The position numbers and the translations under genes were made by a program. 64,000 nucleotides of DNA from Elusimicrobiota bacterium (lineage in GTDB: Bacteria; Elusimicrobiota; UBA8919), in assembly GCA_003452965.1 (NCBI GenBank), contig DMMW01000084.1, positions 20 through 64,019 of the forward strand. The letters run 5' to 3'. Below are positions 2,615-63,128 of this stretch, in pieces (the stretch's first letter is position 1; the number at the start of each line of letters is the position of its first letter). The notes below the pieces were generated by a model. It ran no database searches, was not told the origin of the DNA, and saw only the letters and a list, made by a program, of their open reading frames with translations.

Positions 2615-3598
2615 ATGCAAATAGGAATTATCGGGCTTCCAAATGTTGGGAAGTCCACACTTTTTAATGCGTTAACAAATGCAAATGCCGTTGTTGCAGA
2701 TTATCCTTTTACAACAATAGAACCGAACATAGGGATAGTTTCGGTTCCGGATACACGGCTTAAAAAACTTGGAGAAATTTATAAACCGGAAAAACTGACA
2801 CCTACTACTATACGTTTTGTTGATATTGCAGGTCTCGTCAAGGGCGCGTCAAAAGGTGAAGGGCTCGGCAATAAATTTCTTTCTCATATACGCGAAATGG
2901 ACGCTCTTGTCCAAGTGGTAAGTTGTTTCAGGGAAAACTGTAATCCTTCAGATGAAATAGAAACAATAAAACTGGAACTATTTTTAGCGGATTTGGAAGT
3001 TGTTGTCCGCAGGATATCTTCTATATCCCCAAAAGCGAAATGTGGTATTAAGGAAGCAAAAGAGGAATTAGAAATTCTTTATACAATAAAAGATTCAATT
3101 GAAAAAGGAAACGTATATAACTTTCGGGTGTCATCCGAATTGCAGCTTCTGACATCAATACCGATATTTTACATTGTCAATGTCAAAGACATAAATTTTC
3201 AAATTCCAAAAAGTAAATATGAATTAGTTCCGATTAATGCCAAACTTGAAAACGAAATTTTGGAACTTTCCGATGCGGAAAAGAAAGAATTGGAAGTAAA
3301 ATCGGATTTAGATAAACTGATTTTAGCGGGCTATAAGATTCTTGATTTAATAACATTTTATACGACAGTCGGAACCGAAATAAGGGCATGGAATATTAAA
3401 AAAGGAACTTCTGCACAGAAAGCTGCGGGCAAGATTCATAGCGATTTTGAAAAGAACTTTATAAGAGCCGAAGTTTTCAATTTTTCTGAACTTGAAAAAT
3501 ACGGTTCCGAAAAAACATTACGTGAAAACGGTCTTATCCGTGTTGAAGGCAAGGAATATGTAGTTAAAGACGGCGATGTAATGAATATAAAAATATGA
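2615..3598 (+). CDS. ychF: ribosome-binding ATPase YchF (Obg-family GTPase)
   Basis: MQIGIIGLPNVGKSTLFNALT G1 motif, TGS-like C-terminus; GGAG RBS before the ATG at 2615 (track ORF starts further upstream at 2573). Confidence 0.9.
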   Translation: MQIGIIGLPNVGKSTLFNALTNANAVVADYPFTTIEPNIGIVSVPDTRLKKLGEIYKPEKLTPTTIRFVDIAGLVKGASKGEGLGNKFLSHIREMDALVQVVSCFRENCNPSDEIETIKLELFLADLEVVVRRISSISPKAKCGIKEAKEELEILYTIKDSIEKGNVYNFRVSSELQLLTSIPIFYIVNVKDINFQIPKSKYELVPINAKLENEILELSDAEKKELEVKSDLDKLILAGYKILDLITFYTTVGTEIRAWNIKKGTSAQKAAGKIHSDFEKNFIRAEVFNFSELEKYGSEKTLRENGLIRVEGKEYVVKDGDVMNIKI

Positions 3599-6942: not shown

Positions 6943-8121
6943 ATGAATTTTAGTAAAATAGTGTTAGTATGCATACAAAGTATTATTATTTTTGTTCCGA
7001 TAATATATTTTATTTTACCCGATAACGGTCATATAATAAGCAAAGTTTTATTCGGGATTTTAGGTATTTTGCTGTTTGTTATGTTATTTTTAAAAGTATA
7101 TTTGAAAAAAATATGGATGCAGAACGCCTACCTTAAAATTCCTCTTTTTCTATATTTATTTACGATACTTATTTCAGTTAAAAACTCCGGAAATGTTAAA
7201 TTGGTGTTTGAATCTGCATTGTTTTTTTTGATATTGATGCTTATCTACTATGTAGTTCTTTTATTTTCTGAAAAAGAACGGTCATCGCTAATAAATGCTT
7301 TTATTGTTTCAGCCGCTGTAATAACATGTTTTGCTTTTTCACAATATTTGAGTATCAACTTTTTTAAGTGGTTGCCGAATTTTATTATTGATTTTAATAT
7401 TAATAATTATTCAGGCTTTTTTTTATTAATGTTTCCGATTATTTTTATTATGATGATACAAACAAGAGGAATATTAAAGCATGTTTTTTTGATGCTATTC
7501 TGTTTTGTTATATGTATCAATTTAATTGTCACAAAAATATGCAGCGTATGGGTTATTTTTCTGGTATCTATGCTTTTATTGGTATATGGACAGGTTATTT
7601 ATCTGAAAAGAAAATTTAGTACAATTAAAAGAATATCAAGAGGCAGCTACTGGATATCACTCATGGTTTTTGCCATATTGCTTTTTTCTATAGATAAATA
7701 CGGTACATTGAAAAAATATATCTGTAGAGATGATGTATTGGTAAATAATAGCGTAACATATTTTATGGCAGCTTGGCAGACAGTGAAAGAGTTCCCTGTT
7801 TTTGGAATCGGTGCGGGCAGTACTCCTAAGTATAATAGCGGAATTTTTATCAAGCATTTTATTGAGACAGGTTTATTGGGGTTAGCGATATATGTCTTGA
7901 TATTTATCCGTTATTTTTATATTTGTATAAGCGGTTTTTTAAAAAACATTGATTTTAAAGAAAGTGATTTTAATATGCTTTTTGGAATATTCATTGGAAT
8001 TACCTCGTTTTTCTTGCATACTTTAACAATTTACTCATTTTTTGCATTCCCAGTGTATATTATTCTTTTTGTTTTTCTCGGTCTTTCCGAATCCTATCTA
8101 AAGAATAGTGCGATAGTGTGA
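6943..8121 (+). CDS. polytopic membrane protein, O-antigen ligase/polymerase (Wzy_C)-like
   Basis: About 10 or more predicted TM segments with the large loop typical of the O-antigen ligase family; weak call. Confidence 0.5.
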   Translation: MNFSKIVLVCIQSIIIFVPIIYFILPDNGHIISKVLFGILGILLFVMLFLKVYLKKIWMQNAYLKIPLFLYLFTILISVKNSGNVKLVFESALFFLILMLIYYVVLLFSEKERSSLINAFIVSAAVITCFAFSQYLSINFFKWLPNFIIDFNINNYSGFFLLMFPIIFIMMIQTRGILKHVFLMLFCFVICINLIVTKICSVWVIFLVSMLLLVYGQVIYLKRKFSTIKRISRGSYWISLMVFAILLFSIDKYGTLKKYICRDDVLVNNSVTYFMAAWQTVKEFPVFGIGAGSTPKYNSGIFIKHFIETGLLGLAIYVLIFIRYFYICISGFLKNIDFKESDFNMLFGIFIGITSFFLHTLTIYSFFAFPVYIILFVFLGLSESYLKNSAIV

Positions 8122-8200
8122 TAGTGCCTGCCCGCCCCCACCACTGAAACGTTGGCGGGCAAGAAAGGTTTAGTGGCGGGCGATAGTGTGTCCGCCGTCC
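8110..8200. repeat. GC-rich hairpin element (MITE/REP-like) flanked by an 11-bp direct repeat GCGATAGTGTG
   Basis: GCGATAGTGTG at 8110-8120 and 8180-8190 flanks CCCACCACTGAAAC...GTTTAGTGGCGGG inverted arms; related copies at 39590-39650 and 45165-45225 (inverted). Confidence 0.6.
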
Positions 8201-8291
8201 AAAGGAGGAAGATTCCATTAACCTATCCTATCCCACAATGCCCCTTTTTCTTATGTTGACAAACAAGTATAAAAAAACTAAAATATAATTA

Positions 8292-17542: not shown

Positions 17543-18492
17543 AAACGATTTTTTTTGGTACTCCCGAATATGTAAATCCGTTATTGGATTATTTAATAGA
17601 TAATGAAAATATTATCGCAGTGGTCACGAGATGTGATAAACCTGCAAAAAGACACCTCCAGTCGTTACCATCCGAAGTGAAACAGAACGCCATAAAAAAA
17701 CTGATTAGGGTATTTAGTGTTGAAAAAATTGATGATGCGGTTTTTATTTCAAACTTGTCCGCAATTAAACCGGATGTCGGTATAGTAGCGGCATTTGGAA
17801 AAATATTACCCAAAAAAGTGCTGGATATATTTTCTATCGGTTGTGTGAACCTTCATTTTTCGCTACTCCCGAAATATCGTGGTGCAGCCCCGATTCAGCG
17901 GGCGTTAATTGATGGAGAAACCGAAACTGGAGTTACCAGCTTTTGGATGAACGAGGGAATGGATACAGGCAGAATAATATTTCAGAAAAAAATTAACATA
18001 GATAAAAATGACGACACAAATACTCTTAGGGAAAAGCTTATTCCGGTTGCATTGGATGTTTTACGAGAGACTGTTGTAAAGATAAAGGAAAATTACAAAG
18101 GTGAAGAACAAGTCGGGAATCCGAGTTTTGCACCGCAGCTGAAAAAAGAAGACGGCAAGATAGACGTAGAAAAAACTGCAGAAACAATATTTAATTTGAT
18201 TCGTGGGACTAAACCTTGGCCGGGGGCATTTATCACAATTCACAATTCACAATTCACAATTCAAAACTTAAGAATACTTGATGCACAAATTATTCAGGAA
18301 CCGAATTATCCCTGTTCAGATTTGCTTCCTATCGGTTCCGTTGTAGCTTTGCATAAAAACATCGGTTTTGTATTAAAATGTGGGAAAGGTTATTTATTAA
18401 TCAAGTCCGTTCACCCCCCGTCAAAAAATGTTATGTCTGCATGGTCTTTTTTACAAGGACACAATCTTAAAATCGGCGATAAATTAGATTGA
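17539..18492 (+). CDS. fmt: methionyl-tRNA formyltransferase
   Basis: Formyl-transferase N-domain (HFSLLPKYRGAAPIQ) and C-terminal domain; contains a CACAATT x4 microsatellite at 18234-18261. Confidence 0.9.
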   Translation: MKTIFFGTPEYVNPLLDYLIDNENIIAVVTRCDKPAKRHLQSLPSEVKQNAIKKLIRVFSVEKIDDAVFISNLSAIKPDVGIVAAFGKILPKKVLDIFSIGCVNLHFSLLPKYRGAAPIQRALIDGETETGVTSFWMNEGMDTGRIIFQKKINIDKNDDTNTLREKLIPVALDVLRETVVKIKENYKGEEQVGNPSFAPQLKKEDGKIDVEKTAETIFNLIRGTKPWPGAFITIHNSQFTIQNLRILDAQIIQEPNYPCSDLLPIGSVVALHKNIGFVLKCGKGYLLIKSVHPPSKNVMSAWSFLQGHNLKIGDKLD

Positions 18493-20172: not shown

Positions 20173-20828
20173 GTATAGAGATTTCACCGTCAATATTATC
20201 TGCGGATTTTTCAAACTTAATATCTGATATCAGCGAATGTGAAAAAGAGAATATCGGTATTTTTCATATTGATGTAATGGATGGTCATTTCGTGCCCAAC
20301 ATAACAATAGGTTCTGTGGTAGTTGAATCAATAAGAAAAAAAACTAAATCTATCTTGGATACACATCTGATGATCGAAAATCCGGAGCGTTATGTAGAAG
20401 CGTTTGCAAAAGCGGGCAGCGACTGGATAACTTTCCATATTGAAACGACAAACAGTCCGTTAGGGATAATAAAAAAAATAAAAGATTTAAATGTAAAAGC
20501 CGGAATTTCATTAAATCCCGGAACCCCGATAGAAAAGATTAAACCGTATCTTGAAGATGTTTTTATGGTTATGGTAATGAGCGTCAATCCCGGTTTTGGC
20601 GGCCAGAAATTCATGCCAACAGTTTTATCAAAAGTAAGCCGGCTTAAGGAATGTAGGGGGAAACTTAAAAATAAATTTAAAATAGGTATTGATGGTGGAA
20701 TAAATTTTGATACGATATCCGAGGTTGTGAAAGCAGGTGCTGAATTGGTTGTGGCCGGTTCCGCAGTATTTAAAACCGAATTAGGGATTAGAAAAAGCAT
20801 AGAAAAACTAAGAGAATTATCAAAATAG
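20169..20828 (+). CDS. rpe: ribulose-phosphate 3-epimerase
   Basis: SILSADF, HIDVMDGHFVPN and MVMSVNPGFGGQKF motifs. Confidence 0.92.
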   Translation: MSIEISPSILSADFSNLISDISECEKENIGIFHIDVMDGHFVPNITIGSVVVESIRKKTKSILDTHLMIENPERYVEAFAKAGSDWITFHIETTNSPLGIIKKIKDLNVKAGISLNPGTPIEKIKPYLEDVFMVMVMSVNPGFGGQKFMPTVLSKVSRLKECRGKLKNKFKIGIDGGINFDTISEVVKAGAELVVAGSAVFKTELGIRKSIEKLRELSK

Positions 20829-20829
20829 T

Positions 20830-20871
20830 TCATCCGCCTACGCTCTATCGAGCTTCGGCGAGACAAGGGGG
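20830..20871 (-). repeat. partial inverted copy of the 114-bp dispersed repeat; its G-run forms the rpsP RBS
   Basis: Reverse complement matches CCCTTGTCTCGCCGAAGCTC.TA.GAGCGTAGGCGGA of the elements at 45231-45344 and 62627-62740. Confidence 0.6.
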
Positions 20872-20876
20872 GAGAA

Positions 20877-29558: not shown

Positions 29559-29957
29559 ATGTATAAAAAACCGATTTTTGTGGTTCATAAACATTCAGCG
29601 AAACATTTGCATTATGATTTTCGGCTTGAACATAGCGGTGTTTTAAAGAGTTGGGCGATTCCAAAAGAACCTGTAAATGATTCAAAGATAAAGAGATTAG
29701 CGATATGGGTAGATGACCATCCTCTTGATTATGCAGATTTTTCAGGCATAATTCCCGAAGGCAAGTACGGTGCAGGAAAAGTTGAAATATGGGATAGGGG
29801 TGAATACACTCCGATAAAGTTTGAAGAAGACGAAGTAATTTTTAATCTTCAGGGAGAAAGATTAAAGGGAAATTTTTGTTTGCTTAAGTTGAAAAAAAAT
29901 AATACCAAAGGTAAAAATTGGCTGTTTTTTAAAATGCATCAAAAAGGCAGCGGATAG
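29559..29957 (+). CDS. stand-alone DNA ligase D 3'-phosphoesterase (PE) domain protein
   Basis: FVVHKHSAKHLHYDFRLE..LKSWAIPK..HPLDYADF..IPEGKYGAG.VEIWDRGEY matches the LigD PE domain signature end to end. Confidence 0.8.
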   Translation: MYKKPIFVVHKHSAKHLHYDFRLEHSGVLKSWAIPKEPVNDSKIKRLAIWVDDHPLDYADFSGIIPEGKYGAGKVEIWDRGEYTPIKFEEDEVIFNLQGERLKGNFCLLKLKKNNTKGKNWLFFKMHQKGSG

Positions 29958-30030
29958 CGTTCCGCCAGCTGGCGGGGAGGTTAGCGTATAGTGAAAAGAG
30001 ATAATAAAAATTAAATACTAACCTCTAACC
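29943..30030 (+). repeat. dispersed repeat with CCGCCAGCTGGCGG palindrome and GAGGTTAG/CTAACCTC inverted termini
   Basis: Near-identical inverted copy at 38741-38830; the first 25 bp also occur as a direct repeat at 29487-29515 on the other side of the PE gene. Confidence 0.65.
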
Positions 30031-30055
30031 CCTGATTTCAAAGAAGGATGTTAAA

Positions 30056-31171: not shown

Positions 31172-31185
31172 AAAAGTTAATATAT

Positions 31186-31315
31186 ACGACCTCCGTGGTT
31201 TACCCCGATGGATCGGGGTTGTTTACTCGGTCGTTGCAGTAGCTACGACCTCCGTGGTTTACCCCGATGGATCGGGGTTGTTTACTCGGTCGTTGCAGTA
31301 GCTACGACCTCCGTG
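31186..31315. repeat. 59-bp GC-rich structured tandem repeat, 2.2 copies
   Basis: Unit ACGACCTCCGTGGTTTACCCCGATGGATCGGGGTTGTTTACTCGGTCGTTGCAGTAGCT starts at 31186, 31245 and 31304 (partial); nested stems ACGACC/GGTCGT and CCCCGAT/ATCGGGG. Confidence 0.85.
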
Positions 31316-31328
31316 AACAAAAAATATC

Positions 31329-31357
31329 TTGACAAATTTTTATAATTTCTTTATAAT
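31329..31357 (+). promoter_or_regulatory. sigma70-like promoter (TTGACA, 17-bp spacer, TATAAT) with a 118-nt leader
   Basis: TTGACA at 31329-31334, TATAAT at 31352-31357. Confidence 0.45.
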
Positions 31358-33811: not shown

Positions 33812-33945
33812 GACATCCTAAAAAAGAAAAGATGTCTGATTACATAGATTAGAAAACAGATTACACAGATTTTATTATAGGATTAGGTTCTAATCGGTGT
33901 AATCGATGTTAATAATCTGAGTAATCATTTTATTAAGGAAAATTT

Positions 33946-38740: not shown

Positions 38741-38830
38741 GTATAGAGATTAGAGGTTAGTATTTAATTTTTATTATCTCTTTTCAATATACGCTAACCT
38801 CTCCGCCAGCTGGCGGAACGCTATCCGCTG
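38741..38830 (-). repeat. inverted copy of the CCGCCAGCTGGCGG-containing dispersed repeat
   Basis: Reverse complement is about 95% identical to 29943-30030. Confidence 0.65.
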
Positions 38831-38856: not shown

Positions 38857-39486
38857 ATGAGTGAAGTAAAATCGGAACAAAATACAAAAATAACGGGTGA
38901 AATGGTTTCAAGATTAAGAGAAAAAACCAGTTGCGGAATGATGGATTGCAAACAAGCACTAATAGAAACAGGCGGTGACGAAGAAAAAGCGATAGCAAAG
39001 TTAAGGGAAAAGGGTATAGCGACCGCACAGAAGAAAGCCACAAGAACAACTAAGGAGGGGATGGTATTTTCTTATATTCATCCGGGCAGCAAATTAGGTG
39101 TGCTTCTGGAAATAAACTGTGAAACGGATTTTGTTGCAAAAACCGAAGATTTCCAGAATCTTGGCAGAGAACTTGCTATGCAAATTGCAGCGGCATCTCC
39201 GACGGTTGTAAGTAAGGAAAATGTTGCTAAAGATGAATTAGAGAAGGAAAAAGAAATATTGAAAGCCCAGGCATTGAAAGAAGGTAAACCCGAAAAAATC
39301 CTTGATAAAATAATTACCGGCCGTTTAGATAAATTTTATGAAAGAATATGTCTATTAGAACAGCCGTATATAAGAGACGCAAGTGGTAAGAAAAAGGTTA
39401 AGGATTTAATAACCGAAGTAGTCGCAAAAATAGGTGAAAATCTTTTAGTAAAAAGGTTTGCAAGATTTAAAGTCGGCGAAGAATGA
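38857..39486 (+). CDS. tsf: elongation factor Ts
   Basis: UBA-like N-terminus (VSRLREKTSCGMMDCKQAL) and a single dimerisation core. Confidence 0.9.
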   Translation: MSEVKSEQNTKITGEMVSRLREKTSCGMMDCKQALIETGGDEEKAIAKLREKGIATAQKKATRTTKEGMVFSYIHPGSKLGVLLEINCETDFVAKTEDFQNLGRELAMQIAAASPTVVSKENVAKDELEKEKEILKAQALKEGKPEKILDKIITGRLDKFYERICLLEQPYIRDASGKKKVKDLITEVVAKIGENLLVKRFARFKVGEE

Positions 39487-39505: not shown

Positions 39506-39570
39506 GTATACAGAGTATACAGAGTATACAGAGTATACAGAGTATACAGAGTATACACATAGTATACTTC
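39506..39570. repeat. tandem 9-mer (GTATACAGA) x6 microsatellite
   Basis: Direct reading of the sequence; degenerate 7th unit. Confidence 0.8.
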
Positions 39571-40413: not shown

Positions 40414-40518
40414 ATTGTGACTATCTATAGGTCACTATATAGGTCAGTCGGGCACAATCCCACAGTCCCGCTGTCGCATAATTTTATACATTAATTAAAT
40501 AATGAAAGTGGAGGAAAA

Positions 40519-45164: not shown

Positions 45165-45225
45165 TATTTACCCGCCAATGGTTCCTTGTCCGCCAATGCT
45201 TTAGTGGTGGAAGTGGTGGGCACAG
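45165..45225 (-). repeat. GC-rich hairpin element, inverted copy of the 8127-8200 family
   Basis: Reverse complement reads CCACCACTAAAGCATTGGCGGACAAG, cf. CCACCACTGAAACGTTGGCGGGCAAG at 8138. Confidence 0.55.
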
Positions 45226-45230
45226 ATTAT

Positions 45231-45344
45231 GGAACCCCGTAGAACGGGGTTGTAGCCTTGTTCGGTGCGGTAGGTCCCTTGTCTCGCCGAAGCTCATAAG
45301 AGCGTAGGCGGACGAACTTCGTGTACAAGATTACACAGATTAAG
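45231..45344 (+). repeat. 114-bp dispersed repeat, copy 1
   Basis: About 97% identical to 62627-62740; begins GGAACCCCGTAGAACGGGG and ends ATTACACAGATTAAG. Confidence 0.85.
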
Positions 45345-45473
45345 ACATGATGAAGACAAAGTGAAAAAAGAATCTGATTATTGCAACAAAAGTTACATTT
45401 GAAATTTTGTCTGATAACTCCAGCTTCGTAGGAAGTCTTGCAAAAAATAATTGAAGGTTTAGACAAATAGAAA

Positions 45474-46565
45474 ATGAATATAATAGGTAAAATAACAGGT
45501 ATAAAATATAAAGTAATTCTATCTGAGAACTTAAAGAAAGTTGACATCAAAAATTTTGACATCAACGAAGCACCTTCGTCTTGTGTTATTACAGATAATA
45601 AACATTCTTTTGCTATTTCAAAGTGGGTTTCACCCAAGCGGACACGTTCATATCCATTTGAACGAGTTTTTAACACGCTCAACATTTCAAGGAAAATTAC
45701 TGTTATACCAATCGTAAAAGATGAAGGAGCAAAAGGAGACAGGGATTTCATACAGTGGGACACAGTTTCTTTAATGTCGTTGTTAGACGTGTTTGTAATT
45801 TTTGCTTATTACATAAAAGCGGAAAAAGTAAACCGAAAAATAACCAACCAACAATTTGACAACAAATATGTTCTCTCTAAAATTAAAGAAATTAAACAAT
45901 ATCACAGTTCGGCATTACATTGGAATTTAAACGAAATCAACACTAACTTGCATAACATCATTAACAAAGTAAAATCTTTCTACGCAAAAATTGAAAAATC
46001 AACAAACGTAAAACTTCACGGTTCGAAGGGTACTGGAAATTTTCAAAATAAAATTGGAAAAGATGTTTCATTATTTATGGCATTTTCTAGAGGGAAAGCA
46101 GAAAGAGCTCAATCAATAGAATTTGTAACCCGTCAACCTAAGGAAAGTTTATCGACACTCTCAAAAGCAAAAATTACCATTACAAACTATTTGGGTGGAC
46201 AGTATTTTTTTACTGTAGATGAGATACTTATTACGAAAGAAAAAGTAAGTTTAATAGAAAGTAAACACAGTAAAAATGTAACACTTCCGAGTAAAAGCGA
46301 CATCAAAGATGGTTTGCTGAAAATGATTTTGTATTGCAACTTAACGGATGTAACAGTAAACGGAATAAAAATTAAATGTGAAGCTGTTTTATGTTTGACA
46401 TCTTCAAAACTTAAAGGAGGAATTTCATCCTTCAGTACTAAAAGTGAACTTTCAACGTTTTTTGCGAAAAATAATCTTTCAGAATCACAAATTTTTCTAA
46501 TTGAAACGGTAATAGCAGAAGCGAAACAAAATAAGTTTATAATTAAGGTAAAATATTCAAAATGA
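45474..46565 (+). CDS. putative type II restriction endonuclease (unrecognised family)
   Basis: 363-aa ORF translationally coupled (ATGA overlap) to a Dam-family MTase; candidate PD-(D/E)xK-like residues in TVDEILITKEKVSLIESKHS. Confidence 0.45.
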   Translation: MNIIGKITGIKYKVILSENLKKVDIKNFDINEAPSSCVITDNKHSFAISKWVSPKRTRSYPFERVFNTLNISRKITVIPIVKDEGAKGDRDFIQWDTVSLMSLLDVFVIFAYYIKAEKVNRKITNQQFDNKYVLSKIKEIKQYHSSALHWNLNEINTNLHNIINKVKSFYAKIEKSTNVKLHGSKGTGNFQNKIGKDVSLFMAFSRGKAERAQSIEFVTRQPKESLSTLSKAKITITNYLGGQYFFTVDEILITKEKVSLIESKHSKNVTLPSKSDIKDGLLKMILYCNLTDVTVNGIKIKCEAVLCLTSSKLKGGISSFSTKSELSTFFAKNNLSESQIFLIETVIAEAKQNKFIIKVKYSK

Positions 46566-47491
46566 TAAAAAGCCCACTAAGATATCCTGGAGGCAAAAGT
46601 AGAGCTGTTAAATTGATATCAACTCTTTTGCCAGAATTTGACGAATTTAGAGAACCATTTTTAGGTGGTGGTTCTCTTTTTATTTATGTTAAACAACGAT
46701 TTCCTAATAAGAAATATTGGATTAACGACCTCTATTTAGAACTTTTTAAATTTTGGGAAATGGCACAAAAAGATGTCGATACTTTGATTGACAATATTTA
46801 TGAATGGCGAAATAAATATCCAGTTGGAAAAGAGTTACATAAATTTTTAAATAATAATTTAGAGGGGTTTAACGATTTGGAGAGGGCTGCAGCATTTTTT
46901 ATCTACAATCGTATAACATTTTCAGGAACAAGTTTAAGTGGTGGTTTTAGTGAAGGTGCTTTTACGGGACGTTTTACAAAAAGCAGTATTCAACGACTTA
47001 ACCAATTTGCTAAAGTAATTAATGGCTCAACTATCACTAATCTTGACTACGAAGAATTAGTAAAACAAGAAGGCGAAAATGTATTTATCTTTCTTGATCC
47101 ACCGTATTTTTCTGCGACAAAATCCGCACTATATGGAAAGAATGGGAATATGCATAAGTCGTTTGACCATAAAAAATTTGCAGAAATAATGCGAAATTGC
47201 AAACATAAATGGCTCATAACTTATGATGACAGTGAATATATAAGAGAGCTTTTCTCATTTGCTAACATCATTCCTTGGGATTTAACTTATGGAATGCGGA
47301 ACGTAACCAAGGGTTCAAACCAGAAAGGAAAAGAACTTTTTATATCAAACTATTTAAAACAACTTCCCAGAAAACAACAGATGACTTTATTTGAGCCGAA
47401 AGTGAAATATGTAGCTAAAAAAGAATCATATCACATTTCGTCACCAAGTAAAAAGAGGAATATACATAAAAGTAAAAGAAACGGGTTTTAA
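46562..47491 (+). CDS. N6-adenine DNA methyltransferase, D12 class (Dam family)
   Basis: PLRYPGGKSR N-terminus, FxGxG motif (EPFLGGGSLF), catalytic DPPY (IFLDPPYF). Confidence 0.85.
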   Translation: MIKSPLRYPGGKSRAVKLISTLLPEFDEFREPFLGGGSLFIYVKQRFPNKKYWINDLYLELFKFWEMAQKDVDTLIDNIYEWRNKYPVGKELHKFLNNNLEGFNDLERAAAFFIYNRITFSGTSLSGGFSEGAFTGRFTKSSIQRLNQFAKVINGSTITNLDYEELVKQEGENVFIFLDPPYFSATKSALYGKNGNMHKSFDHKKFAEIMRNCKHKWLITYDDSEYIRELFSFANIIPWDLTYGMRNVTKGSNQKGKELFISNYLKQLPRKQQMTLFEPKVKYVAKKESYHISSPSKKRNIHKSKRNGF

Positions 47492-47706
47492 TTTTTGAAA
47501 CATAACACACAACTGTTATCTTTGTAAGTTTGATTTTTCCACTTTTCATCAGAAGTTTTTATGGAGGATTGGAAACAATAAGTTGCTATTATCTTCTCAA
47601 GTCGGAATCTTATTAAGTAAAGAGATAAAGAGGTAGTTGATAGATTGGTTATCAATGCACAATCGCACAATCCCACTATCACGCTATATCACGAATTTTT
47701 AGTATT

Positions 47707-48858
47707 ATGAAGACAAAGAAAGTTAGAATAGGAAATATATATATAGGTGGTGGTGAGCCTGTCCGTGTTCAGTCAATGACAAAGACAAAAACGGCAGACT
47801 GGAAATCCACTGTTAATCAAATAAGAAAACTGCAGGTCTTGGGTTGTGAGATTATCCGTGTTGCAGTTCCCGATATGAATTCTGCAAAAGTTCTTTCAAA
47901 AATAAAAAAAAACATAAAAATTCCTTTGGTTGCAGATATTCATTTTGATTGGCGGTTAGCGGTTGAAGCGATAAATCAAGGTGTTGATAAAATAAGGATT
48001 AATCCAGGCAATATCGGTTCCCGGGAAAATGTAGAGAAAATCATAATTGCTGCAAAAAAAAAGAAAGTAGCCATCCGTGTAGGTGTAAATGCAGGTTCTT
48101 TAAAAATTCTTAAAAAGTCTGACAGTTGGACGAAGATGTCTACTAAAGAACGTGCTTATCAGATGGTAAAGGAATTACTGGAAAATATTAAAATTATTGA
48201 AGAAATGAATTTTTCCGATATAGTAGTATCATTAAAAGCAAACGATGTTCCGACAACAATTCTGGCAAACGAATTGTACTCAAAAAGAAGAAAATATCCG
48301 ATTCATTTGGGTATTACAGAAGCAGGCACGGAGTTTTCCGGCATCATAAAGTCAGCGGCAGCATTCGGAGTCCTGCTTAATCAAGGGATAGGTGATACTA
48401 TAAGAGTCTCTTTGACCGCTTTGCCGGACGAAGAAATAAAAACCGGGTGGGAAATTTTGAAAACACTTGGTTTAAGAAAAAGAGGGATAGAAATTATTTC
48501 CTGTCCAACTTGTGGCAGATGTCAAACAGATTTAATTAAAATCGTCCATCAGTTAGAAAAACAAATTACAAATTATCCGCCCCGAATCCGCCAGCTGGCG
48601 GATGGGGCGAGACCTCGCCAAAGGTTCAGTGGTGGGCAAATTACAAATTCGCCACTGAAAGTTGCCGTCATGGGTTGTGTCGTAAACGGCCCAGGAGAGG
48701 CAAGAGATGCTGATATAGGAATTGCCGGCGGAAAAGGATTCGGTTTGCTTTTTAAAAAAGGTAAAGTAATAAAGAAAATACCTCAAAATAAATGGGTCGT
48801 TGAAATAATAAAAGAGATTAAAAACAGTCAGTATAAATCAGTTTTAGAATCTGTTTAA
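47707..48858 (+). CDS. ispG: 4-hydroxy-3-methylbut-2-enyl diphosphate synthase (IspG/GcpE)
   Basis: TIM-barrel N-domain; 4Fe-4S Cys motifs CPTCGRC and GCVVNGPGE; carries a repeat-derived insert of about 25 aa between them. Confidence 0.9.
   Translation: MKTKKVRIGNIYIGGGEPVRVQSMTKTKTADWKSTVNQIRKLQVLGCEIIRVAVPDMNSAKVLSKIKKNIKIPLVADIHFDWRLAVEAINQGVDKIRINPGNIGSRENVEKIIIAAKKKKVAIRVGVNAGSLKILKKSDSWTKMSTKERAYQMVKELLENIKIIEEMNFSDIVVSLKANDVPTTILANELYSKRRKYPIHLGITEAGTEFSGIIKSAAAFGVLLNQGIGDTIRVSLTALPDEEIKTGWEILKTLGLRKRGIEIISCPTCGRCQTDLIKIVHQLEKQITNYPPRIRQLADGARPRQRFSGGQITNSPLKVAVMGCVVNGPGEARDADIGIAGGKGFGLLFKKGKVIKKIPQNKWVVEIIKEIKNSQYKSVLESV
48576..48665 (+). repeat. GC-rich palindromic repeat inserted in frame inside ispG
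   Basis: Contains CCGCCAGCTGGCGG and the TTCAGTGGTGGG...CGCCACTGAAA hairpin shared with intergenic repeats; encodes YPPRIRQLADGARPRQRFSGGQITN. Confidence 0.7.
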
Positions 48859-54163: not shown

Positions 54164-54297
54164 TTGTTAAAAAACAATCAATGATTGCACAGATGAACAA
54201 CAAGATTACACAGATTAGAGCATGTAGTTAAATATTTGTAATTGTCTTTAAAAATCTGTGTAATCGCTTTTTGAAATCTGTGTAATCTGGAGTTCAA

Positions 54298-61340: not shown

Positions 61341-62594
61341 ATGCTAAAGATAACGGGTGAGATAGAAGTATCTCCAGATAAATCAATATCACATAGGGCC
61401 CTTATGATATCCGCGATATCAGAAGGCACTTCCAGAATAAAAAATTTTCTTAATGCTGATGATTGTATATCAACAATGAACTGTCTTAAAAATCTGGGCA
61501 TTGACATAACAAATAAAAAAGACGAGGTCATTGTTAGAGGTAAAGGTTTGAAATTACAAGAGCCGAAAAAGGTATTGGATGCCGGTAATTCCGGGACTAC
61601 AGTGCGGCTTCTTTCCGGTATACTTGCCGGGCAGGAATTTATAACAAAAATTACCGGCGACGAATCACTTTCAAGGCGGCCTATGAAAAGAATAGTAGAA
61701 CCGCTCGAGAGAATGGGTGCGAATATAAATACAAATAACGGATGTCTTCCAATTGAAATAAAAGGTGGTAATCTGAAACCGATAAATTACGAGTCAAAAA
61801 TATCTTCAGCACAGTTAAAGTCATGTGTTTTATTAGCCGGACTTTATGCCGATAACATAACCGGTTTTACCGAACCGGAAAAATCTCGTGATCATACCGA
61901 AAGAATGTTGAAGAATTTCGGTGCTGAAGTTTTCGTTAACTGGAACACCGTTTCAGTCAGGGGTAAGGCAAAACTCCGGGCTACCGATGTTTTTGTCCCG
62001 GGCGATATTTCTTCTGCGGCATTTTTTATCGTTGCAGCTGCGATAGTTAAAAATTCAAAATTAAAAATAAAAAATGTAGGTATAAATTCTACAAGAGTGG
62101 GTATTGTAGATGTATTAAGGAGAATGGGGTCGCATTTATCTATTGAAAATAAAAAAGAAGTAGGAAATGAGCCGATGGGGGATATAATAATTGAATCGTC
62201 AGATTTAATATCAACTGAAATAAAAAAAGAAGAGATTCCTTTTTTAATTGATGAAATACCGGTAATAGCGGTTGCAGCAACACAATCAAACGGAATAACA
62301 AAGATTACCGGTGCCAAAGAACTTCGTGTTAAAGAAACAGATCGTTTAAGTGCAATATCAACGGAACTTAAGAAAATGGGTGCAGATATAACTGAATTAG
62401 AAGACGGGCTGATAATTAAGGGACCTACAAAATTAAAAGGAGCAACTGTTAATTCATACAAAGACCATCGTATTGCAATGTCCTTGGCGATAGCCTCGCT
62501 GGTTGCGGAAGGTAATACTGAAATAATAGACAAGGAGTGTGTTAATATATCATTCCCTGAATTTTGGAACATACTCGGCAAAATAACAAAGTGA
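61341..62594 (+). CDS. aroA: 3-phosphoshikimate 1-carboxyvinyltransferase (EPSP synthase)
   Basis: EPSP synthase motifs (LDAGNSGTTVRLL, RPM.R). Confidence 0.92.
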   Translation: MLKITGEIEVSPDKSISHRALMISAISEGTSRIKNFLNADDCISTMNCLKNLGIDITNKKDEVIVRGKGLKLQEPKKVLDAGNSGTTVRLLSGILAGQEFITKITGDESLSRRPMKRIVEPLERMGANINTNNGCLPIEIKGGNLKPINYESKISSAQLKSCVLLAGLYADNITGFTEPEKSRDHTERMLKNFGAEVFVNWNTVSVRGKAKLRATDVFVPGDISSAAFFIVAAAIVKNSKLKIKNVGINSTRVGIVDVLRRMGSHLSIENKKEVGNEPMGDIIIESSDLISTEIKKEEIPFLIDEIPVIAVAATQSNGITKITGAKELRVKETDRLSAISTELKKMGADITELEDGLIIKGPTKLKGATVNSYKDHRIAMSLAIASLVAEGNTEIIDKECVNISFPEFWNILGKITK

Positions 62595-62626
62595 AGATTG
62601 TTGATAAAATCAACAATCTCTGATTA

Positions 62627-62740
62627 CACGGATTGGGGAACCCCGTAGAACGGGGATGTAGCCTTGTTCGGTGTGGTAGGTCCCTTGTCTCGCCGAAGCT
62701 CATAAGAGCGTAGGCGGACGAACTTCGTGTACAAAATTAC
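62627..62740 (+). repeat. 114-bp dispersed repeat, copy 2
   Basis: About 97% identical to 45231-45344; preceded by TGATTACACGGATT and ends AATTACACAGATTAAG. Confidence 0.85.
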
Positions 62741-63093
62741 ACAGATTAAGGCAAGACGTCAAGACCATTTGAGTTTTTTTTGATAGTCTCAAAGTGAAAA
62801 ATGTTGATTATTACAAAAAATTTTCAAAAACAGTAGAAAAAGATTTTTAATATTATAAGGTTATTGAAAAATCTCGTCAAGATGTCATTCCTGCAAAAGT
62901 AGGAATCTATACTCAGACATGAATGGATTCCCAATAATAATGTTCGGGAATGATGGCAAGGGATTTTTAACGACAAATTTGAAAATGATGATGCTTTTTT
63001 ATAATTCATTTCCAATCAGTCGGACACTGTCTGGACAATCTAAAAAAGATAAGGAAATTGTAATTGGTTGGAAATATTGACAAAATTATATAA

Positions 63094-63128
63094 TCTAATA
63101 TAATAGATATGTGTCTAATATAATAGAT
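63094..63128 (+). promoter_or_regulatory. 15-bp direct repeat TCTAATATAATAGAT x2 overlapping a putative promoter (TTGACA at 63078)
   Basis: Two identical 15-mers separated by 5 bp, directly upstream of a wHTH-NTase gene; candidate autoregulatory operator. Confidence 0.4.

Follow-up and report, generated by a model that had tools for sequence, protein, structure and literature searches.

The window, as we call the whole stretch of 64,000 nucleotides analysed here, contains behind aroA a short repeat of which a second copy is found behind rseP and an inverted fragment in front of rpsP. The question that this locus raises is what kind of element the repeat is, how it came to these sites and what it may do there. 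The preliminary description took it for a MITE-like element with hundreds of copies in the genome, one of which would have created a ribosome-binding site. We arrived at a more ordinary picture, in which recombination seems to have carried GC-rich hairpin modules to AT-rich spacers that close operons or border accessory insertions, and once into the coding sequence of ispG.

The window DNA (34% G+C) belongs to a groundwater Elusimicrobia bacterium that is uncultured: the sequences of AroA and RseP agree at 100% with those of proteins labelled "MAG TPA: Elusimicrobia bacterium", and several metagenomes from groundwater contain identical contigs. All long ORFs with Pfam or homologue support are encoded on the + strand, and the GC skew is positive across the window. 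ARAGORN recovered no tRNA or tmRNA gene in the window and Rfam, at gathering thresholds, gave no match anywhere in it; when E-values up to 10 were allowed for the rseP-side copy, only chance-level matches outside the element were obtained. The contig 'RIFOXYC2_FULL_34_12' (L086) belongs to the same population as the window genome and was dropped as an independent relative because it is 100% identical to that genome outside a divergent patch within aroA. This patch of 600 nt (L086 10401-11000) is 85-92% identical to L056, which points to recombination at this place or to a chimeric assembly.

The 114-bp repeat is real, and comprises two co-oriented full copies, after rseP (copy 1) and after aroA (copy 2), and one inverted partial copy of 43 nt. 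The reported identity of about 97% was recovered for 45231-45344 against 62637-62750 (111/114, 97.4%), but not the pairing with 62627-62740, which is 10 nt out of register. The gap-free repeat measures 130 nt (45221-45350 against 62627-62756, 94%), and beyond an indel (13 versus 41 nt) some 40 nt more are homologous (45356-45395 against 62790-62826; score 37 versus a shuffle mean of 19.2, sd 2.6, reached by 0 of 300 shuffles). The partial copy has the inverted orientation ascribed to it, with bounds that had to be shifted from 20830-20871 (42 bp) to 20827-20869 (43 nt), and is identical to both full copies at 39/43 positions (91%); chance can be excluded, the number of matches expected being 0 for the 27-mer and 0.02 for the 18-mer. 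The hairpin CCCCGTAGAACGGGG is present in both full copies (45235-49 and 62641-55), and the terminal ATTACACAGATT is present as well. Domain matches agree with the gene names given before, RseP (Peptidase_M50/PDZ) and AroA (EPSP_synthase) lying upstream of the full copies and the partial copy lying between Rpe and S16. Every copy is intergenic, and the true unit is larger than first described, and modular.

A full copy consists of a GC-rich core of about 100 nt, formed by two hairpins (modules A and B), between two direct copies of the AT-rich 13-mer GATTACACAGATT. The features of the window are the following:

20827..20869, - strand: solo module B, inverted, between the rpe stop (20826-20828) and the rpsP Shine-Dalgarno sequence and ATG (20877); 48.2 bits
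31185..31302, + strand: two exact tandem 59-nt homologues of module A, without module B, and a 13-nt partial unit that runs on to 31315
45171..45220, + strand: module C, a GC-rich nested hairpin (CCCGCCA...UGGUGGG, with G-U pairs) in the left 13-mer of copy 1
45221..45229, + strand: CACAGATTA, right half of the left 13-mer of copy 1, which is split by module C (intact in the relative L096 as GATTACACAGATTA)
45230..45328, + strand: core of copy 1, 99 nt, with the module A hairpin at 45235-45249 and module B at 45276-45318
45329..45341, + strand: right 13-mer of copy 1, GATTACACAGATT
45356..45384, + strand: 29-nt fragment of the aroA-stop/cmk-start junction at the rseP locus, identical at 26/29 positions to L056 12761-12789
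62594..62620, + strand: perfect AT-rich hairpin AGATTGTTGAT-AAA-ATCAACAATCT, starting from the aroA stop codon, within the aroA-cmk insertion
62622..62634, + strand: left 13-mer of copy 2, GATTACACGGATT, which belongs to the separate GATTACACAGATT family
62635..62734, + strand: core of copy 2, about 100 nt, GC-rich
about 62635-62681, + strand: module A of copy 2, with the hairpin CCCCG-UAGAA-CGGGG at 62641-62655
62682..62724, + strand: module B hairpin of copy 2, 43 nt, with a 24-nt core at 62692-62715; model score 46.9 bits
62735..62747, + strand: right 13-mer of copy 2, AATTACACAGATT
62790..62826, + strand: decayed duplicate (J') of the aroA-stop/cmk-start junction, common to the downstream flank of copy 1

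Module B has the form UUGUC-U-CGCC / GAA / GCUC-AUAA-GAGC / GUA / GGCG-GACGA; the internal loop is 3x3 (GAA/GUA) and the hairpin is capped by a tetraloop. Module B is sequence-identical in the two full copies, where it folds at -20.2 kcal/mol (z -4.2). The folding is strand-asymmetric, the GAA/GUA strand ranging from -18.5 to -20.2 kcal/mol (z -3.4 to -4.2) and the complement reaching -12.8 (z -1.3). Modules A and B are separable, since each occurs alone elsewhere in the window, module B in the inverted copy and module A in the tandem at 31185-31302, which resembles most clearly the version of module A found at a distant locus, L082 (see below). The tandem is flanked by a DUF362/ferredoxin gene on one side and by a perfect TTGACA-17-TATAAT promoter (31329-31357) on the other. 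Module C is unrelated to the core and has the general form CCGCCA...UGGYGG; a relative of it lies downstream of aroA in L087, and it is also found inside ispG. Altogether, some eight of the spacers between co-directional genes contain GC-rich structured islands.

Some further repeats were encountered in the same spacers and genes. The ispG gene (47707-48858) carries an in-frame insertion of 78 nt at 48560-48649, which adds 26 aa (YPPRIRQLADGARPRQRFSGGQITN) and is composed of a 66-nt GC-rich hairpin module (containing AUCCGCCAGCUGGCGGAU) and a second copy of CAAATTACAAAT; neither the Aquifex IspG structure 3NOY nor the IspG proteins of 357 and 361 aa from two relatives contain it, the relatives having different 7-nt tandem repeats at that spot. 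Tandem repeats of 7-9 nt (GATAGTGT, CACAATT, five units of GTATACAGA, and CACAATCC) are found in many spacers (8114-8211, 18229-18255, 39506-39566, 40442-40488 and 47657-47701; L097 12270-12345), where they often flank GC-rich hairpins, and relatives have other units at the same sites. A pair of 86-nt inverted repeats (29948-30033 and 38745-38830; 95% complementary, 8.7 kb apart) lies in the spacers after a gene with a LigD_N domain (29559-29957) and before the ORF at 38857-39486, and each arm carries a palindrome of the module-C type, CCGCCAGCTGGCGG.

The 13-mer GATTACACAGATT is a separate, lineage-specific repeat family, independent of the core; at up to 2 mismatches the window holds 15 matches, versus 2.3 expected. 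It also occurs in clusters of two forward and two reverse copies around a loop (13-8-13 / loop / 13-9-13), at topA (33838-33926) and ftsZ (54183-54287), which end 10-20 nt before the start codons. The ftsA-ftsZ cluster is found in the relative L087 as well (84-88% identity; 3002-3088), with the 13-mers kept and the spacers and loop different, and the relative L089 (64-81%) has no motif of this type in 21 kb and an ftsA-ftsZ spacer of only 22 nt. At 76% identity, a relative lacks the clustered arrangement, which at 88% identity is still recognised.

Comparison with orthologous sites indicates that the core is an insertion, which would have come secondarily to places where 13-mers already stood. 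In L096 (84% identical), the rseP flank reads AGAGAAAC-GATTACACAGATT-ATTAAAGGCA-GATTACATAGATT-AAGACAT, with both 13-mers, a 10-nt spacer and no core; in the window, module C lies within the first 13-mer and the 99-nt core replaces the 10-nt spacer. As both 13-mers are already there at the empty site, the flanking repeats pre-existed and do not represent a target-site duplication. Downstream of aroA, the core is again missing in L087, where a module C, a single degenerate 13-mer and a duplicated aroA/cmk junction are found, and in L089 there is no spacer at all, aroA and cmk overlapping; the AT-rich hairpin after the aroA stop is missing from both relatives. In the window genome this ancestrally overlapping pair is split by an insertion of 1,516 nt, which comprises the AT-rich hairpin, the element, a promoter and the MNT and HEPN genes and is bracketed by a 15-nt direct repeat, AAAATAACAAAGTGA (window 62580-62594; L056 12756-12770, just past the window end). 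An 88% relative has different cargo at this junction, encoding a 163-aa protein and an NHL-repeat protein.

The segment that the full copies have in common further downstream (45356-45384 and 62790-62826) matches the overlap of the aroA stop and the cmk start, ACAAAGTGAGAAAAAAGCTGATTATTGC, of the same genome, and the score of the rseP-side fragment was reached by 0 of 500 shuffles. Since the rseP-side copy carries a piece of the aroA-cmk locus, it would have arisen, probably from that locus, by an ectopic, recombination-type duplication of at least 175 nt and not by the cut-and-paste movement of a discrete transposon; at least one of the two full copies would have this origin. A duplicate of the rseP end was looked for at the far side of the cargo between rseP and ispG, and none was found there. 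This cargo (45474-47491) encodes a 363-aa protein without a Pfam match and a D12-class N6-adenine DNA methyltransferase, a possible restriction-modification pair; relatives hold a 123-aa ORF or an MFS transporter between rseP and ispG instead.

The partial copy had been credited with donating the ribosome-binding site of rpsP, a claim that had to be given up, as in relatives without the hairpin the ATG is preceded, at an equal distance, by AAGGAGG or GGAGG. The spacer between rpe and rpsP measures 48 nt in the window versus 28 and 20 nt in the 64-65% relatives L091 and L092, which read AAAGGAGGATAGAAA-ATG and GAGGAGGGTAAAG-ATG at this place, and only the first three G of the run GGGGGGAG (20867-20869) are homologous to the full copies, the following GGGAG (20870-20874) not being so. 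The hairpin was inserted between the rpe stop and a pre-existing Shine-Dalgarno sequence, with an overlap of three G only, and the solo module B would at most have reshaped AAGGAGG into AAGGGGGG. The strand transcribed at rpsP is the weaker-folding complement of module B (-12.8 kcal/mol, z -1.3), and the fold of the rpsP leader as a whole is not significant (z -0.66).

The accessible sequence of the window genome amounts to about 73 kb and holds three copies of module B and two full copies. A covariance model of module B (R1), run with its filters off, recovered from the 64 kb window the three copies already known and no other, and none from about 90 kb of two closer relatives; the whole element, compared by BLAST with every locus retrieved, yielded nothing new. 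When metagenomes were scanned with a 19-mer that all three copies have in common, the matches were the two known full copies and a single new locus, L082; the collection, which covers the window genome incompletely, missed the copy at rpsP. Viral contigs contained no match to module B and one chance-like match to module A, in a GC-rich phage contig, and plasmid and phage BLAST gave no match. Two short assemblies (L059 and L060) stop inside the element; others read through, and the full copies were assembled through in several metagenomes. The hundreds of copies that had been anticipated were thus not encountered; with respect to the genome as a whole these scans, which cover the window, about 90 kb of relatives and metagenomes of incomplete coverage, are suggestive only.

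L082 is a contig of a distant Elusimicrobia relative (29% G+C), in which a core of 85% identity has a 13-mer on each side. This copy is non-syntenic: it lies between genes of a glycosyltransferase cluster, co-oriented with them, and is followed by TTGACA-16-TAAAAT. The proteins of L082 and the window are only some 25-70% identical (tblastx segments, mostly 35-57%). Given such a copy at a non-syntenic site, the repeat appears to be more than a purely local duplicate. With only three full-length sequences the covariation over the full core is minimal (2 pairs) and uninformative; by eye, a compensatory change from GUUCG/CGAAC to GCUCG/CGAGC can be seen among the three.

What the element may do is suggested by where it lies. 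The full copies were correctly placed downstream of operons; they are found 0-30 nt past the stop codon of the last gene of a conserved operon, in sense orientation. Copy 1 is followed by the genes for the 363-aa protein and the D12 methyltransferase, copy 2 by MNT/HEPN, and the L082 copy by a predicted transferase-like gene with only a weak Pfam match (CoA_binding_3). Recognisable promoters lie downstream of the element, copy 2 being followed by a perfect TTGACA-16-TATAAT (63077-63104), and no promoter-like site was found upstream of either full copy. There was no terminator-like site on the + strand at either full copy, and no U-tract after the hairpins; in a loose terminator scan only the module-A homologue passed (at 31202 and 31261). 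Canonical intrinsic terminators were not enriched in 40 kb (16 versus 10.3, and 13 versus 11.4, in comparison with shuffles), which makes the modules the most obvious candidates for operon-end signals. The sense position after operon ends, the unenriched canonical terminators and the GC-rich islands in the spacers together favour, with moderate confidence, a role of the REP/BIME type as a barrier in the 3'-UTR. In such a role, the core, having reached sites that already held 13-mers, would be transcribed as a 3'-UTR at the end of a conserved operon, before the promoter region of the accessory cassette that follows, and its strand-specific hairpins might act as a 3'-end barrier by non-canonical termination, by protection from exonucleases or by insulation from the downstream unit. 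Contrary to such a role, the solo copy at rpsP has the weaker-folding orientation. In sum, the anatomy and modularity of the element, its insertion relative to relatives, the lack of terminal inverted repeats, target-site duplication and transposase, and the strand asymmetry of folding are observed, and the RNA-level function and the mode of spread of the core are inferred. We give an even chance to the reading that this is a low-copy, lineage-restricted mosaic intergenic repeat of hairpin modules between 13-mers, of which at least one copy originated by ectopic duplication and which is a candidate 3'-UTR barrier.

Other explanations were weighed against this one. A simple local segmental duplication, immobile and functionless, in which some 175-200 nt were copied once from the aroA-cmk spacer into the rseP-ispG spacer, was the finding that the preliminary description had named as speaking against a mobile family, and it is in part borne out. 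It agrees with the homology that passes the end of the element into the aroA/cmk junction fragment, a flank that both full copies indeed share, and with the presence of only two full copies in about 73 kb of genome and the metagenome scan. It does not agree with the 85% core that stands, with nothing but its 13-mers, at the unrelated, non-syntenic L082 locus of a distant relative, with the solo inverted module B at rpe/rpsP and the solo module A at 31185, or with the recurrence of the module B core across phyla (see below), and we regard it as unlikely. Slightly less likely again is a family of small structured RNA genes, either trans-acting sRNAs or cis-acting leaders of the downstream accessory genes: the core is 85% conserved between the window and L082 versus a much lower protein identity, the three full copies are co-oriented with the flanking genes, the fold is significantly stable (z -3.55) and an accessory cassette follows each copy, but at either window copy there is neither a promoter-like site upstream nor a terminator after it, the recognisable promoters come after the element, no Rfam family fits, and the modules separate and occur in both orientations.

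That the element is a recombination or attachment site, a functional analogue of attC that marks the upstream junction of integrated cassettes, would explain the position of the full copies at the left edge of lineage-specific cargo in conserved arrays (rseP/ispG and aroA/cmk), the different cargo of relatives at these same two sites and the 15-nt direct repeat around the aroA/cmk insertion. We hold it for improbable, given that the inverse core sites R''/R' (RYYYAAC...GTTRRRY) are missing, that an XerC-like gene is the sole integrase of the window, that no matching element occurs at the right-hand junctions and that the cargo of relatives at these sites comes without the core. Most improbable of all appears a MITE/REP family of the classical high-copy kind, which a transposase elsewhere in the genome would mobilise in trans; the three copies in 64 kb, the short assemblies that end inside the element, as they do at repeats, and the GTAG motifs within the hairpins would fit, but terminal inverted repeats are lacking, the empty site already has the flanking repeats, both copies were assembled through in several metagenomes, the scans returned no further copies, and the 5' foot of the hairpin, where REPs have their GTAG, is without this motif. 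The reading as a low-copy mosaic repeat with a candidate role at 3' ends is thus the one we prefer.

The search for module B outside the Elusimicrobia gave a by-product that is more valuable than the repeat and merits its own follow-up. The pattern GCCGAAGCTCNNNNGAGCGTAGGC has 20 fixed bases, for which about one chance match is expected in 596 Gb (both strands, equal base frequencies assumed), and the scan of species-representative genomes recovered 55 matches, in CPR/Patescibacteria, Rickettsiales-like and other alphaproteobacterial MAGs, Verrucomicrobiota, Desulfobacterota, Bacteroidota, Gammaproteobacteria and Planctomycetes; none of the 55 was labelled Elusimicrobia. In these sequences pairing is seen in 84% of the outer-stem cells and falls to 35-47% on sliding of the 3' partners, and the outer-stem covariation score was reached by 0 of 500 shuffles, both values being inflated by kinship among the 55. 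At positions 4-5 of the outer stem, G-U pairs outnumber A-C pairs (33 versus 7), GNRA loops occur in 16/55, and looser patterns recovered GAA/GAA and GAA/GGA variants and second copies nearby, in either orientation. About 22 of the 55 lie within 200 nt of a tRNA gene; ten directly adjoin the reverse complement of a tRNA 3' end, three overlap tRNA-Gly 5' ends in CPR/Patescibacteria MAGs (two in one genome) and one follows a 5S rRNA. Module B takes both orientations to the adjacent genes (9 sense and 11 antisense in tandem contexts), so that a role of the sense strand as RNA is not established and a strand-specific hairpin of single-stranded DNA is possible, which the G-U/A-C asymmetry could equally reflect.

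In AT-rich alphaproteobacterial/Rickettsiales-like MAGs, module B lies on the strand opposite to many different tRNA genes and starts exactly where their encoded CCA ends (L003, L004, L010, L022, L028, L031, L032, L047, L050 and L055). A GCCTACGCTCT some 60-110 nt upstream can pair with the 3' arm of module B, giving mutually exclusive structures; this partner is found in L004, L028, L031, L050 and L055 and is degraded in L047. In L025 and L037/L042 (the latter two from one genome), module B overlaps the tRNA-Gly 5' end by 2 nt, and L027 has the same flank at the end of the locus. A module-B-like hairpin lies in frame in the TatD gene of L074, an ambiguous case with just a 6-aa difference from 1J6O. 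An origin from rRNA was rejected for want of any rRNA similarity, and one from tRNA because the likeness of the GCUC/GAGC stem to a tRNA D-stem was judged coincidental; for a K-turn, the sarcin-ricin loop, a hammerhead core, the RfaH ops site (GGCGGTAG) and attC, either the conserved positions did not fit or the likeness was absent from the second copy or L082. Rfam, applied to 19 module B loci, returned tRNA and rRNA only, and module B is absent from Rfam; literal sequence strings matched nothing but primers in the literature, and the RepRanger and TnpA-REP papers contain no matching consensus. Module B (YYUGYC-CGCC GAA GCUC NNNN GAGC GUA GGCG-GRCARR) could be an uncatalogued cross-phylum hairpin, perhaps the recognition hairpin of an unrecognised, widespread mobilisation or RNA-processing system of which the Elusimicrobia mosaic would be one local host, a proposal that we consider doubtful. 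If it is a genuinely shared motif and not the outcome of convergence, module B points to a common recognising enzyme or process.

How does the element compare with known systems? It was rightly described as non-autonomous, intergenic and hairpin-rich, and as having no transposase nearby: Pfam identified among the window ORFs no transposase, no Y1/RAYT and, save the XerC-like gene, no integrase. MITEs, such as Correia, ERIC and RUP, are likewise non-autonomous, about 100-130 bp long, intergenic and structured, and absent from orthologous sites in relatives. The proposed membership among them is nevertheless contradicted by the ends, which are direct 13-mers (62622-34 and 62735-47, both +) and not terminal inverted repeats, by the L096 rseP site, which has both 13-mers 10 nt apart and no core, so that no target-site duplication is seen, by the host flank that the copies share, and by the lack of a known parent IS. 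Instead of many dispersed copies with precise ends, the accessible sequence has two full copies, with homology that runs into the host junction. The attC motifs R'' (RYYYAAC) and R' (GTTRRRY) are not recognised either, inspection revealing no GTTRRRY at the 3' end and no ends complementary in this way, and the combination of GC-rich stem-loop and U-tract that defines Rho-independent terminators is absent from the full copies.

The BOX elements of Streptococcus pneumoniae are modular (boxA-boxB-boxC) and have a high copy number. Like these, the element has separable sub-elements in varied combinations and in tandem, but its sequence is unrelated and its modules stand as GC-rich islands against a genome of 34% GC. 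Rickettsia palindromic elements (RPE) are hairpin repeats inserted in frame in housekeeping genes, and it is module C, and not the core, that is reminiscent of them, being in frame and adding 26 aa to IspG; it differs in its unrelated sequence and in the short tandem heptamers that flank the insertion. Excerpts of two accounts of mitochondrial GC clusters or repetitive hairpin elements (PMC4478555, PMC2800124) describe GC-rich hairpins that invade AT-rich intergenic DNA, often by tRNA genes, with a mobilising enzyme that is unknown. As far as these excerpts go, the GC-rich hairpins in AT-rich spacers and the proximity to tRNA genes are alike, but these clusters are organellar, not bacterial, and bear no sequence relation to the element.

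The closest likeness is to the REP/BIME elements of Enterobacteria and Pseudomonas. Both are short GC-rich imperfect palindromes between co-directional genes, just past stop codons; both form mosaics with other motifs, in both orientations, fold in a strand-asymmetric manner and presumably give 3'-UTR hairpins, and the modes of action considered above for the 3'-end barrier are those proposed for REP/BIME elements. The 43-nt module B, in combination with modules A and C and the 13-mers, is a short extragenic imperfect palindrome in mosaics as this class is defined, so that the term BIME-like suits its build. REPs have a conserved GTAG immediately 5' of the palindrome (PMC8266576), whereas in the element GAGC-GUAG-GC sits in the 3' arm and internal loop of module B and no GTAG stands at the 5' foot. 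The element further differs in its apparently very low copy number (three copies of module B in 73 kb and none in about 90 kb of two relatives) and in that no cognate RAYT (Y1 HUH) gene was seen by Pfam among the window ORFs, and the conservation of the module B core across phyla contrasts with REPs, which are each tied to one species and its RAYT. On balance, the element would best be filed as a mosaic variant of the REP/BIME type rather than as a MITE, with its function as a candidate one.
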